Part shown: positions 53,476 through 62,510 of the stretch, piece by piece
Layout: every line of letters begins with the position of its first letter
How positions within the stretch are numbered: position 1 is the stretch's first letter
Origin: a virus
Lineage: Duplodnaviria; Heunggongvirae; Uroviricota; Caudoviricetes
Virus record (IMG/VR): IMGVR_UViG_3300020109_000007
Location: 47,463 to 111,462 of that record
Reading direction: 5' to 3' (one strand)
Length of the DNA: 64,000 nt
Program-made: the position numbers and the translations under genes
Notes under the pieces: model-generated
The model's database searches: none
What the model was told of the DNA's origin: nothing
Seen by the model: only the letters and a program-made list of their open reading frames with translations

Positions 53476-53510
53476 CTTGACAACGCGTTGTCGACGCACT
53501 ACTGTCGGCG
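53476..53510 (+). promoter_or_regulatory. Plus-strand promoter-like module (variant: TTGACA-N17-TACTGT-CGGCGC)
   Basis: First member of the GC-region module family. The normal promoter TTGACTcgcgagctgattctagaTATAAT (53524-53552) follows, driving 53576..54197. Confidence 0.45.
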
Positions 53511-53575
53511 CAGGTGAATTTATCTGTTGACTCGCGAGCTGATTCTAGATATAATGAACGCACAAAGGAGAGATT

Positions 53576-53800
53576 ATGGGTCTGTTTAGTACTTTTCTAG
53601 TAGTAGAAGACGAGAATGACACTTTTGGCATCGGTCAGTACTTTCACGAGGAAGACTTGCCAGAAACCGTTGAGGGTTACCACTCTAGAGATATTCAATT
53701 TGATAGAGCACCAGATCTTGCGATTGGAGGCATTACACTGCTCGAACTAAAGCATCAGCTTCGCCAGCTTCTGGATCAGGTGGAGGCCTATGAGCGTTAA
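53576..53800 (+). CDS. Hypothetical protein
   Basis: AAGGAG RBS; 74 aa. Confidence 0.4.
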   Translation: MGLFSTFLVVEDENDTFGIGQYFHEEDLPETVEGYHSRDIQFDRAPDLAIGGITLLELKHQLRQLLDQVEAYER

Positions 53801-54197
53801 CTGGAACGAGCCAATCGAGGCCGTAAATCGTGTGACTGGTGAGGTCGTGCCTATGGAGCTAGCACGAGGACCCGAGAAAGACTATTGGGGCGGTCAGTCC
53901 TACTATACTAAAACAAGTCCTAGTACTTCGACAAGTAATAACGGCTGGCACGAGGATGGGGGAGACCATTGTAGTCATAATCAGTGGTACATTCGAAATG
54001 TGCCGAATTCCGGCGTAGCCGATGAGTTGGCACAACTGCGTCAATTTCGGGAAATAGCGCTACTCGTTGCTCCGGAACTCGCGCAGATGCCCAAATCCGA
54101 CGAGGAGATGGTCGAGTTTCTAGCAAACGCGTACTATGAGAGCGACGACGCGGATTTGCCCGCAATTATTCTAGCTGCCATGAAGTGGGCAAAATAA
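53790..54197 (+). CDS. Hypothetical protein, paralogue of 62511..63119
   Basis: PIEAVNRVTGEVVPM...YTKTSP...NGWHEDGGDHC..NQWYIRN corresponds to PLEAVEKATGRVVPV...HTKESP...DNWYLDGRDYC..DKWLIRN. Confidence 0.45.
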   Translation: MSVNWNEPIEAVNRVTGEVVPMELARGPEKDYWGGQSYYTKTSPSTSTSNNGWHEDGGDHCSHNQWYIRNVPNSGVADELAQLRQFREIALLVAPELAQMPKSDEEMVEFLANAYYESDDADLPAIILAAMKWAK

Positions 54198-54199
54198 TT

Positions 54200-54232
54200 A
54201 AGGCCGGGAATTGCTCCCGGCCTTTTTTATTT
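54200..54232 (+). terminator. Rho-independent terminator
   Basis: aggccgggaattgctcccggcct + tttttat. Confidence 0.65.
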
Positions 54233-54277
54233 GTCAAAAATTTTGACCGATGGTGAATAATTGACTTGACACTATTT

Positions 54278-55099
54278 TTATTCGGCGCTTAATAGTGAGG
54301 TTCTAGCACCTTTAAAACATTCAGTTTTACCATTTCTTTCAAACCAAGAATCTTCTGGTATGAACTGACTAACTTCCTTTTTAATATCTCGTTCAATATT
54401 TAAAGCCTCTACCAGCGTCGTACTAATTGAGTCTAGTATTCTATATTTCGGAGCACCGTTAAGGCGAAGTTTTATTGTCTGTTGTGTTATACCAAACTTT
54501 TTAAAGCTGCCAAAATCAACTAAGTATACTATAGTTTCTTTATTAGGATCAAACTTACCTCCAATATTAGGAGGTAGACCATTAGCTTCTAGCGCTGCGG
54601 ACCAAGACCCATATTGACGTATAATCCTAGAGCTATAAGGTTGTGGACAGCGCTCTTTTACTAAATAATTGAGCACGTACTGATTTAGTTCTTGTACTGA
54701 TGATTTCGGCGCTAGATTTTGGTGAGAATAACTTCCTGTAGGACTAGATTGATGACCTTGAGCTTCCAATACTCCTTTTTTAATCAACCTACTTATCTTT
54801 TGTTTAACTTTATCGTAGTTGCGATTCATCTTACTAGCTATTTCAGGTATAGATAATTTATACGTGTCTCTATATTCTATTAAATCTAACTCATCATCTA
54901 GAGACCAAGTATCTTTAGAAATGGTTGAACCAACTAATTTATTCCCCTGTACCGCAACAGCTCTATAAGTTCTATCTGGGAGTAAGGTTGTAATTTCTTT
55001 ATAGTTTAAACCTTGAAGTAGACTGTCTTTAATAAGTTGATTTTCTTCTTCAGTCCAAAATTTTCGTTGTGCCATGTTGATAGTACACTGAGTTGACAT
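54278..55099 (-). CDS. GIY-YIG-like (T5orf172-type) putative homing endonuclease with SANT-like N-domain; AT-rich gene inside the GC-rich segment
   Basis: RKFWTEEENQLIK...LLPDRTYRAV and IVYLVDFGSFKKFGITQQ. Confidence 0.45.
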   Translation of the reverse strand: MSTQCTINMAQRKFWTEEENQLIKDSLLQGLNYKEITTLLPDRTYRAVAVQGNKLVGSTISKDTWSLDDELDLIEYRDTYKLSIPEIASKMNRNYDKVKQKISRLIKKGVLEAQGHQSSPTGSYSHQNLAPKSSVQELNQYVLNYLVKERCPQPYSSRIIRQYGSWSAALEANGLPPNIGGKFDPNKETIVYLVDFGSFKKFGITQQTIKLRLNGAPKYRILDSISTTLVEALNIERDIKKEVSQFIPEDSWFERNGKTECFKGARTSLLSAE

Positions 55100-55233
55100 G
55101 CTACTGTCAAAAGTTAAATATTTCGAGGTCGTATGTAGCTTATAGTTGCATTACTACTGCACTGGTCGGCGCTTAGTCATGGAGACGATATATCAGAAAG
55201 GTGATGATATAACATATCAGAAAAATTTTTCTC

Positions 55234-55276
55234 TTGACAAAATCGCGTTAGTCCGTCAAAATCGGCGCCACGAAAA
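55234..55276 (+). promoter_or_regulatory. Plus-strand promoter-like module followed by hairpin + T-tract (55290-55330)
   Basis: tcTTGACAaaatcgcgttagtccGTCAAAATCGGCGCC, then aaagccgcca...tggcggcttt-ctctc. Confidence 0.5.
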
Positions 55277-55593
55277 AAGCCGCCAGAGGGCGTCCCCCGT
55301 GGCGGCTTTCTCTCGCTTTGCGTCTTTCGCAATCTCCCCGGCTCTTATCTGCAACAGGTTGAAAGGGGAGTGGAAAGGTTCGCGATTTAATGGTGCCCTT
55401 TTCCGCTTGCCGCGACACCTGCCGGTCAAAACCCCGGACGGACGATCCGTTTCGGGGACCGATACCTAGGCAGCTAATTTTAACGTGTCCGTGCCGACAC
55501 GGTAATCAAGAGCCGATTTGGCATCTATTTGCCGCCTCCCGCTCTTGATAACTCTCTTATATCAAACTTTCACTTGCCTGTCAACAACTATTT

Positions 55594-60781: not shown

Positions 60782-60811
60782 CGAATTGGGAAACCGAAGT
60801 CTCCCAATTCT

Positions 60812-61102
60812 TTAATTGAACCGGCAGTCGTTACGGGTGCGCGCCGGAAGCCCTGCAGGAGCTTCGTCAAAAGCGTTTAGCCGAATCGTCATCACCTCGA
60901 AGCCCTGTCGTTGCAATTCACGACGAATCTGCCTTGCTTCGCGCATGACTCGCACTTTGTATTCCGTGCTGTTCTCCGTTCCGCAAATCAGTCTCATATC
61001 TTCATATACAACGCGAACCGGAATGTCCTGCGCCAAAGCGGGAGTCGCTGCTCCACAGGAAGCTAGAGCGATAGTGGCGGCAAAAATAAAGTTACGCATC
61101 AT
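60812..61102 (-). CDS. Secreted lipoprotein-like protein
   Basis: Signal MMRNFIFAATIALASC with a lipobox. Confidence 0.35.
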   Translation of the reverse strand: MMRNFIFAATIALASCGAATPALAQDIPVRVVYEDMRLICGTENSTEYKVRVMREARQIRRELQRQGFEVMTIRLNAFDEAPAGLPARTRNDCRFN

Positions 61103-61154
61103 TTCAAATCTCCTTGTTTCGATCAGGTCACTTTAGGCGAAGTTGCCTAGGTTG

Positions 61155-61379
61155 TCAATGAGTATTTCCAATCCATGTTGCATCAAAAGCGGGTGATCCT
61201 TCCGGTTGATTGTCGTTCGCCGCCCGACTAAACTCCGCGTAAGCGTCAGCATAGCCTTCCGCAAATCCTGTATTATACGGAGTCACCTCAAAATCGCTCA
61301 CGTCAATACATTCGCGAAAATTGAGCGCGTCAAAAGCGCCGCGCCGCCAGCCCGCTTCGTATCCGTCAAACTCGTTCAC
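61155..61379 (-). CDS. Hypothetical protein
   Basis: 74-aa ORF. Confidence 0.3.
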   Translation of the reverse strand: MNEFDGYEAGWRRGAFDALNFRECIDVSDFEVTPYNTGFAEGYADAYAEFSRAANDNQPEGSPAFDATWIGNTH

Positions 61380-61667
61380 GATGTTTCTCCTTTCGACTAT
61401 AGGCTTTCTTCGATTTAACCGCTCTAGCCCGAAGGCTAGGGCATGTCAAGGCTTTTGCCTCAAAGTTTCGCTTTCCCTTTTGCGAGTCCGTCCGAATAGC
61501 CATATTGAAAATCCTTTGAGCGATGGCTGACAGAGCGAGGCGGCTTGTTGGCTCGCGCGTCCTGCCGACCTGCCATAAATCCGTTCAGATAGTCAACCAT
61601 CGCTCTACCTCCGCTCTTGATGTTTTCAGTATAACAGAAAAAATATGCGCGTCAAGAAAAAAGATCG

Positions 61668-61702
61668 CTTGACGTGAAAATAATTCTATGCTAAAATCGG
61701 CG
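61668..61702 (+). promoter_or_regulatory. Plus-strand promoter-like module + hairpin (61705-61727)
   Basis: gcTTGACGtgaaaataattctatGCTAAAATCGGCGCC, then gggggaggacgttaatcctcccc. The hairpin loop contains the stop codon of 61718..61957. Confidence 0.5.
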
Positions 61703-61717
61703 CCTCGGGGGAGGACG

Positions 61718-61957
61718 TTAATCCTCCCCGTCGCCTTCCATCTCTGCACAATCCTCGCAGTTGCCATCCCGGTCAAACTCGCAAGGGTCCCAGTAATAAC
61801 CGCAAGTGTTGCAAGAGTCCGCGCTTTCATAAATGCGCCGCATGTCAGCCTCATTCAAATCTGGATGATCCTTGTGGAAGTTCCAGCCTAGAGTTCCGAT
61901 CAATTCGCCCGCAATGCGGTCAAGTTCATCGTCGGATCGCGTTGTTTGTTCAGTCAT
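61718..61957 (-). CDS. Hypothetical acidic Cys-rich protein
   Basis: 79-aa ORF. Confidence 0.3.
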   Translation of the reverse strand: MTEQTTRSDDELDRIAGELIGTLGWNFHKDHPDLNEADMRRIYESADSCNTCGYYWDPCEFDRDGNCEDCAEMEGDGED

Positions 61958-62447
61958 TATTCATCCTCCACAATCTGAATATCAATCTCGCTGTCTTCCG
62001 CAAGAGCGCGAGCAATAGTCGCCAGCCCGTAAGGGAGATTAGGCTGTTCTAGCAGCCATTCGGCGATGTTCTCGGCGTCCGCCAAATCTAGAATAATGCT
62101 TTTAGCCACGAGTCACCCTTTCCGGTTCGATGTTTCTCGTTCTATGATACCATTGCCGCTCTGTCAAGAGCTTTTTCTTTGTGGCGGGAACTTTCGTTAC
62201 CCGTCCGCCTTTCGCCAGAAAGGCTCGCACAAGATCGTTGCTCACGATAGAGGCATCCAGCAAACATGCGTTCCGCAATCCGCCAGCACAATCTGGGCGA
62301 CTTCAATGCCGATGTCTCCGTCGATGATAGCTTCGCAGTTGTTCTTGACGCAAAAGTCAACAAGCTCAAACATATCCATCTGCTGTCTCCCTCTTTGATA
62401 GCCTCATTATAAGCCGTGCCTAGCAGGCTGTCAACAAATCTTTTCGC

Positions 62448-62482
62448 TTGACACAAAAATAATTATGGGCTAAAATCGGCGC
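62448..62482 (+). promoter_or_regulatory. Plus-strand promoter-like module + hairpin (62485-62508)
   Basis: ttttcgcTTGACAcaaaaataattatggGCTAAAATCGGCGCG, then attgggagcccgaaggctcccaat. Confidence 0.5.
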
Positions 62483-62510
62483 GAATTGGGAGCCCGAAGG
62501 CTCCCAATCG

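Follow-up and report, generated by a model that had tools for sequence, protein, structure and literature searches.

Short antisense RNAs that arise from a sigma-70 promoter and converge on the 3′ end of an early gene are known from lambda (oop, transcribed from promoter pO) and from P22 (sar). In lambda there is one such RNA, oop, of 77 nt, which has a terminator of its own, overlaps the cII coding sequence and leads to RNase III-dependent decay of the cII mRNA. Here, we describe a repeated promoter-like element in 64,000 nt of Caudoviricetes DNA (IMG/VR record IMGVR_UViG_3300020109_000007, positions 47,463 to 111,462; this whole stretch is referred to as the window). Eight copies of the element, termed modules, lie on the plus strand opposite a cluster of minus-strand genes that is, judged from its sequence, the pre-early (A1, dNMPase) cluster of an uncultured T5-like phage.

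The layout of a gene, a 3′ hairpin or terminator and a promoter pointing back into the gene is shared with a synthetic part described by Brophy and Voigt 2016 (PMC4731013), in which an antisense promoter placed after a terminator represses the gene in proportion to its strength, by RNA polymerase (RNAP) collision and antisense RNA. Convergent transcription units of E. coli can end through head-on collisions whose position is set by stem-loops other than intrinsic terminators (10.1101/2022.10.23.513370); the collision terminators of Ju et al. 2019, in the terms in which they are cited there, usually have genes or known RNAs as partners. Convergent promoters are also present in coliphages 186 (pR/pL) and P2 (Pe/Pc), which, in the citation of Callen et al. 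2004 in PMC4731013, serve temperate lysis-lysogeny switches with one pair per genome and promoters at least 62 bp apart.

In T5 (NC_005859; PMC7472727), A1 and the dNMPase likewise belong to a co-oriented pre-early block that ends at a divergence point and is transcribed by the host sigma-70 RNAP. Shutoff of these genes depends on A1, which associates with RNAP, while gpT5.026 changes the contacts of RNAP with the discriminator, and it has long been asked how pre-early expression in T5-like phages is ended (PMC7472727). The annotated promoters of the T5 cluster are all on the sense strand (NC_005859); our examination of this cluster revealed neither CGGCGC modules nor comparably strong antisense promoters.

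The modules of the window have the general form cTTGACA-N17-(TG)nTAAAAT-CGGCGC and extend over positions 55234-62482, with one module per 0.4-2.3 kb:

55234..55268, plus strand: module 1, TTGACA-N17-CAAAAT-CGGCGC, -10 at 55257, CGGCGC at 55263.
56439..56473, plus strand: module 2, TTGACA-N17-(TGc)TAAAAT-CGGCGC, -10 at 56462, CGGCGC at 56468.
58776..58810, plus strand: module 3, TTGACA-N17-(TGc)TAAAAT-CGGCGC, just upstream of A1, -10 at 58799, CGGCGC at 58805.
59755..59789, plus strand: module 4, TTGACA-N17-(TGc)TAAAAT-CGGCGC, -10 at 59778, CGGCGC at 59784.
60322..60356, plus strand: module 5, TTGACA-N17-TAAAAT-CGGCGC, -10 at 60345, CGGCGC at 60351.
60748..60782, plus strand: module 6, TTGACA-N17-(TGc)TAAAAT-CGGCGC, -10 at 60771, CGGCGC at 60777.
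61669..61703, plus strand: module 7, TTGACG-N17-(TGc)TAAAAT-CGGCGC, -10 at 61692, CGGCGC at 61698.
62448..62482, plus strand: module 8, TTGACA-N17-TAAAAT-CGGCGC, -10 at 62471, CGGCGC at 62477.

The spacer measures 17 bp in all eight copies, the -35 hexamer is TTGACA in seven and TTGACG in one, the -10 hexamer is TAAAAT in seven and CAAAAT in one (55257), and five copies have the TG of an extended -10. TTGACA-N15-19-GCTAAAAT has five exact matches, on the plus strand only, for an expectation of 0.00 from shuffles; with up to one mismatch, TAAAATCGGCGC matches nine times, again only on the plus strand and always inside 55257-62482 (expected, 0.41). AATCGGCGC is present nine times on the plus strand inside 55.2-62.5 kb; outside this interval, the 64 kb contain a single further copy, in reverse complement, and the module pattern was not found in the other 55 kb of the window. 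Altogether, the region contains 37 promoter-like sites compared with 11.8 ± 3.3 in shuffles; the modules reach scores of 10-11 out of 12. Over the 25 nt in front of the modules, the A+T content is 69% on average (49% for the region). Promoter-like modules opposite the gene strand, each behind an AT-rich UP-like tract, had been announced by an earlier reading of this DNA by a model that saw the sequence alone (the original prediction), and both features are borne out by these counts. That reading had listed ten sites; eight are intact, while the other two, one of which (given as 56845) lies at 56870-56881, are degenerate:

53477..53511, plus strand: degenerate copy TTGACA-N17-TACTGT-CGGCGC(AGG), in tandem with and upstream of a plus-strand gene promoter at 53527, hence not antisense.
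56870..56881, plus strand: degenerate copy AAAAAT-CGGCGC without a -35 hexamer, in the 5′ leader of a minus-strand unit.

A further CGGCGC, at 63247, was rejected as a module, being 20 nt beyond its -10.

With moderate confidence, we propose that the modules constitute a distinct class of strong promoters for host RNAP of the sigma-70 type, which converge on the pre-early units and would oppose their sense transcription in cis.

Relatives of the module were sought in IMG/VR, at first with a 14-mer scan that returned mostly chance matches and was replaced by an 18-base gapped pattern with two scrambled controls. The exact scan for TTGACA-N17/18-TAAAATCGGCGC yielded at least 119 contigs, and the controls with a scrambled discriminator (CGCGGC and GCGCCG) one contig each. 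Among 185,579 bacterial and archaeal genomes there were 42 matches, for which a back-of-envelope estimate gives about 35 by chance. On at least five of these genome contigs, homologues of the pre-early genes of the window (L229, L245, L255, L264; such numbers denote related loci) or several module copies (L229, L256) are present, and these contigs therefore look like mis-binned phage DNA. With the matches in genomes accounted for by chance and mis-binning, the motif is best regarded as a phage signature and not as a host promoter type. Among the short contigs binned into bacterial metagenome-assembled genomes, a module is accompanied by homologues of dNMPase, of the paralogue pair par1/par2 or of g60389 (L229, L245, L255, L264); the binning of L229 as Thiobacillus sp. 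is the sole, and weak, hint at a host. In IMG/VR, a gene for a dNMPase homologue (30-63% identity) lies no more than a few kb from a module on at least 50 contigs, and several of the module-bearing contigs encode homologues of par1/par2 or g60389, so that the modules mark the pre-early region of a broad uncultured T5-like branch. Antisense promoters and convergent transcription at gene ends are a known kind of arrangement, of which the module with its GGCGC discriminator appears to be an undescribed, clade-wide phage version; a literature search for the motif string returned primers only and nothing relevant.

The original prediction had suggested searching phage genomes with the consensus and aligning the copies, and conservation could be computed on 185 unique (non-identical) copies from the relatives. 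Positions for which the pattern had not selected are conserved, namely T at -17 (0.69), R at -16 (0.85), T at -15 (0.75) and G at -14 (0.74), which together form a TRTG extended -10, and an UP-like A-tract is present at -45 to -40. The spacer has 17 bp in 113 and 18 bp in 71 copies and a sequence content of about 0 bits, and the base following CGGCGC is C or G in 87%. These unselected positions are contacts of sigma-70 RNAP; in sequence terms, the module has, hence, the character of a promoter and not of a repeat, with -35, a free spacer of 17 ± 1 bp, -10, TG and UP elements all in place. A purely sense-strand terminator element is excluded by the conserved -35, spacer length and TRTG, and the possibility, raised at the outset, that the motif is simply the reverse complement of a terminator consensus fails against the sigma-70 contacts conserved in the 185 copies.

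The discriminator sets these promoters apart. In a census of strong promoters in dNMPase loci, 95 of 204 on the antisense strand carry CGGCGC, others showing TGGCGC, GGGCGC and TTTGGCGC variants, while the sense-strand promoters have AT-rich discriminators. The GGCGC core can sit 1-3 nt from the -10. A GC-rich stretch between -10 and start is typical of rRNA P1 and other stringent-type promoters, whose open complexes in E. coli are short-lived and depend on supercoiling, the initiating nucleoside triphosphate and ppGpp/DksA. Such promoters tolerate many GC-rich sequences and have sub-optimal spacers, whereas the modules need one hexamer in combination with an optimal spacer and -35. The special discriminator probably gives the modules a regulation unlike that of the sense promoters; it might do so by conferring sensitivity to DNA topology or by serving as a site that a phage factor reads.

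An invariant hexamer that lies strictly on one strand and is confined to the pre-early region would also befit a site acting at the DNA level, in which case a phage protein, such as a nickase like that behind the T5 single-chain interruptions or an A2-like DNA-binding protein, would recognise CGGCGC (in AATCG|GCGC) on one strand, and the promoter would be incidental or serve only to open the DNA. The core G|GCGC is indeed common to the module and to the T5 single-chain interruption consensus R|GCGCRGG (PMC3517423), a palindrome also follows the T5 nick at 9748, where ATGAGAATCAATCTCATTT repeats resemble those after modules of relatives, and the shift of GGCGC by 1-3 nt relative to the -10 suits a site of this type. 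Still, we judge this explanation improbable. The three major T5 nick sites examined read A|GCGCAGGG and have no upstream -35 or -10; the modules continue with S-N-N (gag, ctc, caa, gaa, cac) instead of RGG; and the T5 nick consensus shows no enrichment in the window (4 sites for an expectation of 5.2), with only 53387 and 53507 (GGCGCAGG) matching it among the CGGCGC sites. A T5-type nick site is largely rejected on these three grounds. Furthermore, a bare protein site would not keep the -35, the 17/18-bp spacer, TRTG and the UP tract, and homologues of A2 and T5.026, which were looked for in the window, were undetectable.

The only two CGGCGC sites followed by AGG (53386-53394 and 53506-53514, plus strand) lie in a 0.75-kb non-coding, repeat-rich stretch (52800-53575) at the left edge of the pre-early region, which, from its sequence, could be a terminal-repeat boundary or a region like the T5 injection stop. 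In some lineages, the “hairpin” directly 3′ of the modules is a recurrent AT-rich palindrome such as AAATGAGAATnATTCTCATTT (L075, L142, L199, L131, L053), which resembles a Fur-box-type operator and is more likely a protein site than a hairpin; near-copies of it, ATGAGAATCAATCTCATTT and ATGATTCTCATTT, adjoin the major nick in the injection-stop region of T5 (L120, 9690-9715).

The orientation of the modules is conserved. Generic coding-strand calls (longest open frame, ends of open reading frames (ORFs), greedy ORF tiling, a self-trained codon score) were dropped as too noisy and replaced by anchoring on the dNMPase and by direct reading of loci. In 55 loci with a dNMPase 30-63% identical to that of the window, 98 of 106 modules are antisense to this gene; six of the eight exceptions are found in L073/L108, where the modules lie in a neighbouring opposite-strand block of small genes and are, again, locally antisense. 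In the 61 loci with at least two modules, 195 copies share the majority strand and five do not, all five being face-to-face partners of another module. Reading L037, L108, L213 and L179 directly confirmed the local antisense placement, with a cassette that runs from the gene stop through the hairpin, GCGCCGATTTTA...TGTCAA and an A/T tract or lineage-specific palindrome to the sense promoter and the next gene.

Such uniform orientation (195:5) could also be that of inward-facing entry promoters, from which RNAP, like E. coli RNAP at T7 A1-A3, would translocate towards the part of the DNA still outside the cell and would help to draw in or retain the first-step DNA. By analogy with the repeat layout of T5, the cluster would be transcribed towards the first-entering end, and the modules would then be its sole inward promoters. 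The modules do point inward relative to the T5 layout and recur every 0.4-2.3 kb, and the inward-transcribed block of L108/L073 and the opposite-strand block of L037 are without modules. On the other side, a hairpin and sometimes a full terminator immediately after the start would hamper long-range translocation, the position of the terminus in this genome is itself inferred, T5 does without such promoters, and first-step transfer of T5 DNA reportedly needs neither metabolic energy nor protein synthesis. Entry promoters are, thus, the most improbable of the explanations considered.

The proposed antagonism of sense transcription is bound up with the structures into which the modules point. The following hairpins, given without strand, lie at the eight modules:

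55276..55309: hairpin after module 1 with 10 perfect pairs, T-rich on both sides and, by its sequence, looking like a bidirectional terminator; it ends a putative non-coding minus-strand transcript of about 285 nt.
56476..56502: 11-bp hairpin, 2 nt past CGGCGC, ending 7 nt before the stop of minus-strand gene 56509-56649; no plus-strand T-tract.
58821..58853: imperfect 15-pair hairpin, followed by ACTTTTTG on the minus strand and, therefore, a likely terminator for the dmp operon.
59796..59823: 12-bp hairpin, ending 8 nt before the stop of par2 (59831).
60359..60383: 11-bp hairpin, ending 6 nt before the stop of minus-strand gene 60389-60667.
60783..60810: hairpin from the predicted +1, followed by TTTAATTG on the plus strand and ending 2 nt before the stop of minus-strand gene 60812-61102.
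61708..61729: 8-bp hairpin, overlapping the last codons of minus-strand gene 61718-61957.
62485..62508: 10-bp hairpin, ending 3 nt before the stop of minus-strand gene 62511-63119.

A perfect hairpin of 8-12 pairs 1-10 nt downstream, lying over or just past the stop codon of the upstream gene, had been predicted for every copy. At seven modules, a perfect stem of this size starts 0-7 nt past CGGCGC, while the stem at 58776 is imperfect, has 15 pairs and starts 10 nt past it. With regard to the stop codon, the hairpin ends 2-8 nt before that of the convergent minus-strand gene or overlaps it (2-11 nt) in six copies, whereas at 55234 it ends 285 nt before the stop of g55594 (predicted start about 325 nt before), with the putative non-coding transcript in between. 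At 58776, the start is about 50 nt before the stop, and the stem computations disagree on whether the hairpin overlaps the stop (2 nt) or ends just before it. An oop-type placement, with the promoter convergent on the 3′ end of its target, is present: in six of the eight copies, no more than about 50 nt separate the predicted start from the stop codon of the upstream gene, the exceptions being 55234 and 58776.

As a class, these hairpins are not intrinsic terminators. On the module strand, all eight copies have a stem-loop and two, at 55263 and 60777, also the T-rich tail that had been noted there before; on the sense strand, the form is canonical only at 55309-55276 and 58853-58821, the nearest U run elsewhere (AUUUUA, the complement of the -10) being 6-12 nt beyond the stem. 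Among the relatives, a stem of 8 bp or more starts no further than 25 nt past CGGCGC at 46% of modules, compared with 15.5% for random positions, the gap peaking at 0-5 nt, and about half of the modules have no strong hairpin. A T-rich tail follows 18-30 of 110 of the relatives' hairpins (16-27%) on the module strand and 3-8 of 110 (3-7%) on the sense strand. Judged by these tails, most hairpins are no canonical terminators in either direction. At orthologous positions the stem is retained while its sequence is replaced, which argues that the structure itself is under selection. The suggestion that GCGCCG lengthens the sense-strand stem into a canonical terminator does not hold in the window, but does in L108/L073 and for the face-to-face pairs of L037.

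It had been supposed that each module runs straight into its hairpin and gives a transcript of only about 40-60 nt. As a general rule this does not stand, since the few T-tracts on the module strand mean that most copies could read on into the gene. A related explanation holds the modules to be genes for tiny (about 30-50 nt) 5′-triphosphate hairpin RNAs, which would be stable small RNAs or decoys, with host nucleases or RNA-sensing defence systems as possible targets, or would act in an oop-like manner by forming a duplex with the 3′ hairpin of the sense mRNA, to which they are complementary, and so triggering RNase III cleavage and decay. Hairpins at the very 5′ end are known to stabilise RNA, those of the modules start 0-5 nt past the predicted start site, and canonical terminators exist on the module strand at 55263 and 60777 of the window and in L121, L190, L199, L075 and L185. 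Nevertheless, the low share of T-rich tails (16-27%) and the lack of a strong hairpin at about half of the relatives' modules speak against it, as does the variation of the hairpin sequences between copies and phages, which makes a shared target in trans unlikely and leaves only a cis-antisense role. Overall, tiny RNAs as the purpose of the modules are unlikely.

The proposed opposition to the sense units also requires a view of the sense promoters. A scan of the minus strand (55584-63646) gave 16 candidates of the form TTGACR-N17 followed by a weak -10, often without the usual T at -7 (TATAAG, TATAAC, TAGAAC, TAGAAG, TAAGAT); most then carry a conserved leader CATCAAGAnnGGAG before the start codon. 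By these sequence features the candidate sense promoters of the pre-early genes are a class of their own. Lineage-specific versions of the leader are present in L213 (TAGAAGGG) and L037 (TATWTTAATCATCGAAGCAA). With their good -35 and mostly weak -10, compared with the near-consensus modules, the sense promoters appear from sequence to be the weaker set and the antisense promoters the stronger one.

Seven of the eight modules stand back-to-back with a minus-strand gene promoter, at a gap of 13-43 bp between the -35 hexamers, in line with what had been predicted. This pairing has suggested to us that a module might be a helper, whose divergent initiation would supply negative supercoiling or RNAP to the weak sense promoter 13-43 bp behind it; on the torsionally relaxed, free-ended DNA of the first-step transfer, poor sense -10 boxes would be switched on thereby. 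The seven pairs in the window share a common A/T tract, the sense -10 boxes are weak (TATAAG, TAGAAC, TAGAAG and others) where the modules are near consensus, and lineage-specific palindromes or DnaA-box-like elements of relatives lie exactly between both promoters. Against this, very short transcripts make little supercoiling, a free-ended molecule dissipates supercoils, and the coupling to hairpins, the face-to-face copies and the exact CGGCGC are left unaccounted for. Moreover, a divergent consensus -35 within 80 nt is found for only 29 of 180 modules clade-wide (10% at random), in a test that counted consensus boxes only and so missed non-consensus -35 hexamers. We therefore doubt the helper explanation, which, like that of inward entry, accounts for fewer features than the proposed cis antagonism.

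Between the divergent promoters, several elements were noted in relatives. A perfect 18-bp palindrome, CATTACAAATTTGTAATG, stands exactly between the module -35 and the next sense promoter in L037 (4606-4625, 5496-5515, 6708-6727, 8015-8034, 8598-8617), L092, L100, L105 and L220, and has the look of an operator through which a dimeric protein would regulate both divergent promoters. The same place is taken by TTGTAAAGTGTAAATATTTAC in L073/L108 and by CACCATACCCACAAAGAGGTA in L053. DnaA-box-like TTATCCACA and TTTCCACA and the repeated TGTGGATAA occur between or just past the promoters in L213 (635-650, 1430-1445, 2395-2410) and, downstream of modules, in L207, L208 and L147; the injection-stop region of T5, too, presumably bears DnaA boxes.

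Module 3 also has a partner of opposite direction:

58835..58863, minus strand: convergent promoter TTAACA-N17-(TGc)TATAAT, inside the terminator hairpin of the dmp operon, reading towards A1 and face-to-face with module 3.

Both promoters (58776 and 58863-58835) score 11 of 12 with TG, and their starts, by a 7-nt start rule, are about 17 bp apart; therefore, they cannot hold polymerase at the same time. Face-to-face pairs are present in nine loci, i.e., the window copy upstream of A1 and eight related loci, and an interference distance as in the face-to-face switches exists in the window at 58776 only. Compared with the pairs of 186 and P2, as far as these are described in the citing paper (PMC4731013), the two promoters at 58776 overlap so closely that occupancy must compete, and the phage is T5-like and presumably virulent.

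Taken together, the hallmarks of the proposed class would be a consensus -35, a spacer of 17 or 18 bp, TAAAAT with an extended -10 and a discriminator that invariably contains GGCGC. Most members would act from directly behind the 3′ hairpin of a gene, with the antisense transcript beginning at the hairpin base, and some would face a sense promoter, as does the copy upstream of A1. Three routes may be envisaged: (i) head-on RNAP collision at or near the hairpin, which would end and insulate each unit, the hairpins mostly lacking a U-tract of their own; (ii) an antisense RNA that would cover at least the 3′ hairpin and often extend into the gene, being short and oop-like in the copies with a T-tract; and (iii) direct promoter competition in the face-to-face copies. 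The net effect would be a tight or transient expression of host-takeover genes. We infer from sequence that the modules fire, at some defined time, and that the outcome is antagonism in cis.

This is supported by precedent, as the cassette unites features of the terminator-plus-antisense-promoter part (PMC4731013) and of collision at stem-loops (10.1101/2022.10.23.513370). The phage version is natural, present in about eight copies per genome and conserved over a phage clade; it differs from the former in its invariant GGCGC discriminator, its back-to-back fusion with the promoter of the next gene and hairpins that are mostly non-canonical terminators both ways. Convergent promoters on either side of a non-canonical stem-loop, the geometry in which transcription would meet as at the E. 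coli collision terminators, can be read from the window sequence, too; in contrast to the usual partners cited there (10.1101/2022.10.23.513370), one partner in the phage is a dedicated promoter that starts at the stem-loop base, so that the antisense polymerase would barely be out of its promoter at the meeting. Compared with the single oop RNA, the modules are many, each lies mainly over a 3′ hairpin, and a terminator on the antisense strand is confined to a minority; overlap of the antisense transcript with coding sequence would be certain only upon read-through of the hairpin. Of the roles first offered for the modules (tiny RNAs, insulators, protein-binding sites), the evidence favours cis antagonism of sense transcription and does not separate the collision/insulator version from the antisense-RNA version. 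The occurrence of the module throughout a clade, the face-to-face promoter upstream of A1 and the greater strength of the antisense promoters, by sequence, than of most sense promoters go beyond the original prediction.

Several points weigh against the proposal. A purely kinetic, GC-rich discriminator fails to explain the more than 100-fold excess of CGGCGC over CGCGGC or GCGCCG, and a fixed RNAP contact is hard to reconcile with a GGCGC that can sit 1-3 nt away from the -10. Strong antisense promoters, if constitutive, should swamp the weaker sense promoters, so that one has to assume some unseen regulation that lets sense expression come first, for which the special discriminator is the natural candidate. 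The dependence of open complexes on supercoiling at a GC-rich discriminator could distinguish the free-ended first-step DNA from later DNA; yet, neither topology nor an RNAP-associated protein accounts for the exact hexamer or the sliding of GGCGC. T5 shuts off its pre-early genes without such modules, and the block of L108/L073 that contains the dNMPase has none, so that the modules seem to track the cluster transcribed towards the terminus, by analogy with T5, and not particular genes. The generic coding-strand classifiers were noisy (127/87/32 and 75/25/72), though with the same lean. Lastly, there is no cultured close relative: megablast of 55.5-63.7 kb against 50,697 phage records gave zero matches.

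Tentatively, the proposal can be taken one step further, to the possibility that the promoters with a GGCGC discriminator are a phage-specific class that implements the pre-early switch as a cis-encoded shutoff timer. The modules would then be poorly active on freshly injected, free-ended DNA or with unmodified RNAP, and the weak sense promoters would express the takeover genes, until an A1-like or gpT5.026-like factor, or a change in topology, fires the modules and collision and antisense RNA silence every pre-early unit.

The genes opposed by the modules and the putative non-coding transcript faced by module 1 deserve a brief description:

55594..63646, minus strand: pre-early-type gene cluster opposed by the modules, with A1, dNMPase, par1, par2 and many small orphan ORFs.

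A1 (56987-58657, minus strand) has 556 aa and is 41% identical to A1 of T5; the T5-type dNMPase (59152-59664, minus strand; 170 aa) matches PF26880; par1 and par2 share 49% identity. A divergence point at 63.65-63.8 kb, with plus-strand genes beyond, gives a layout that copies that of the T5 terminal repeat, i.e., terminus, minus-strand dmp-A1-A2 cluster, divergence point, plus-strand cluster and injection stop signal. No cultured close relative was found by tblastn with dNMPase, g60389, par1 and g62511, the sole good match being the T4-like Methylophilales phage Melnitz, which has one small membrane protein in common and nothing more; a related-locus search with A1 alone gave no result. PHROGs assigned no function to the small genes of the cluster, and par1 matched T5 A2 with E = 0.42 at best. 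In an Rfam 15 scan of 52500-64000 no score came near the gathering threshold, the best match being a terminator-like one to SorX (E = 0.009). Positions 56000-64000 have a G+C content of 50-51%, compared with 41-45% over most of the other 56 kb, a difference that may reflect an evolutionary history or constraints of the pre-early block separate from those of the rest of the genome.

Upstream of the 55276..55309 hairpin, a minus-strand promoter (TTGACA at 55584, N17, TATAAG, the usual AUCAAGAGCGG leader) would drive about 285 nt without an ORF of more than 14 codons, up to the canonical terminator (55309-55276 plus U6). For the stretch 55270-55584, which may encode a non-coding RNA of the phage, the predicted fold has -114.9 kcal/mol (z = -3.7 compared with shuffles). 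Rfam gave no match to it, and the related loci that were retrieved contain nothing convincing as a homologue, with one 54-nt match (80%) in L217. The N-terminal parts of the proteins encoded at 53790-54197 (plus strand; LEAVEKATGRVVP...) and 62511-63119 (minus strand; PIEAVNRVTGEVVP...) are alike by eye, which fits a paralogue pair of the original prediction, here on opposite strands; between the two genes is a low-GC, homing-endonuclease-like gene (54278-55099; PHROG D5-like regulator/endonuclease). Elsewhere in the window, the minus strand bears 29 tRNA genes and a call resembling transfer-messenger RNA (9.7-35.4 kb), as well as T5-type early genes for a DnaB-like helicase, an NAD-dependent ligase, metallophosphoesterases, thymidylate synthase and a lipoprotein. 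The transfer-messenger RNA-like gene, called by ARAGORN at 35068-35380 (minus strand) downstream of the 29-tRNA array, has the tag peptide VNDNDMEVAQAA.

What emerges is an uncultured branch of T5-like phages with strong antisense promoters at the end of nearly every pre-early unit and an exact six-base discriminator that bacteria do not use in such a context; TTGACA-N17/18-TAAAAT-CGGCGC serves as its compact sequence signature. Should the modules work as proposed, they would be a natural, evolutionarily maintained version of the synthetic “terminator plus antisense promoter” tuning part and a clean system for programmed RNAP collisions, and the invariant GGCGC would point to a reader of the discriminator, be it a property of RNAP or a phage protein. 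Were the tentative switch to prove true as well, a large uncultured T5-like branch would have a shutoff timer in common, and a new sequence-specific read-out of the discriminator would be at work in it.

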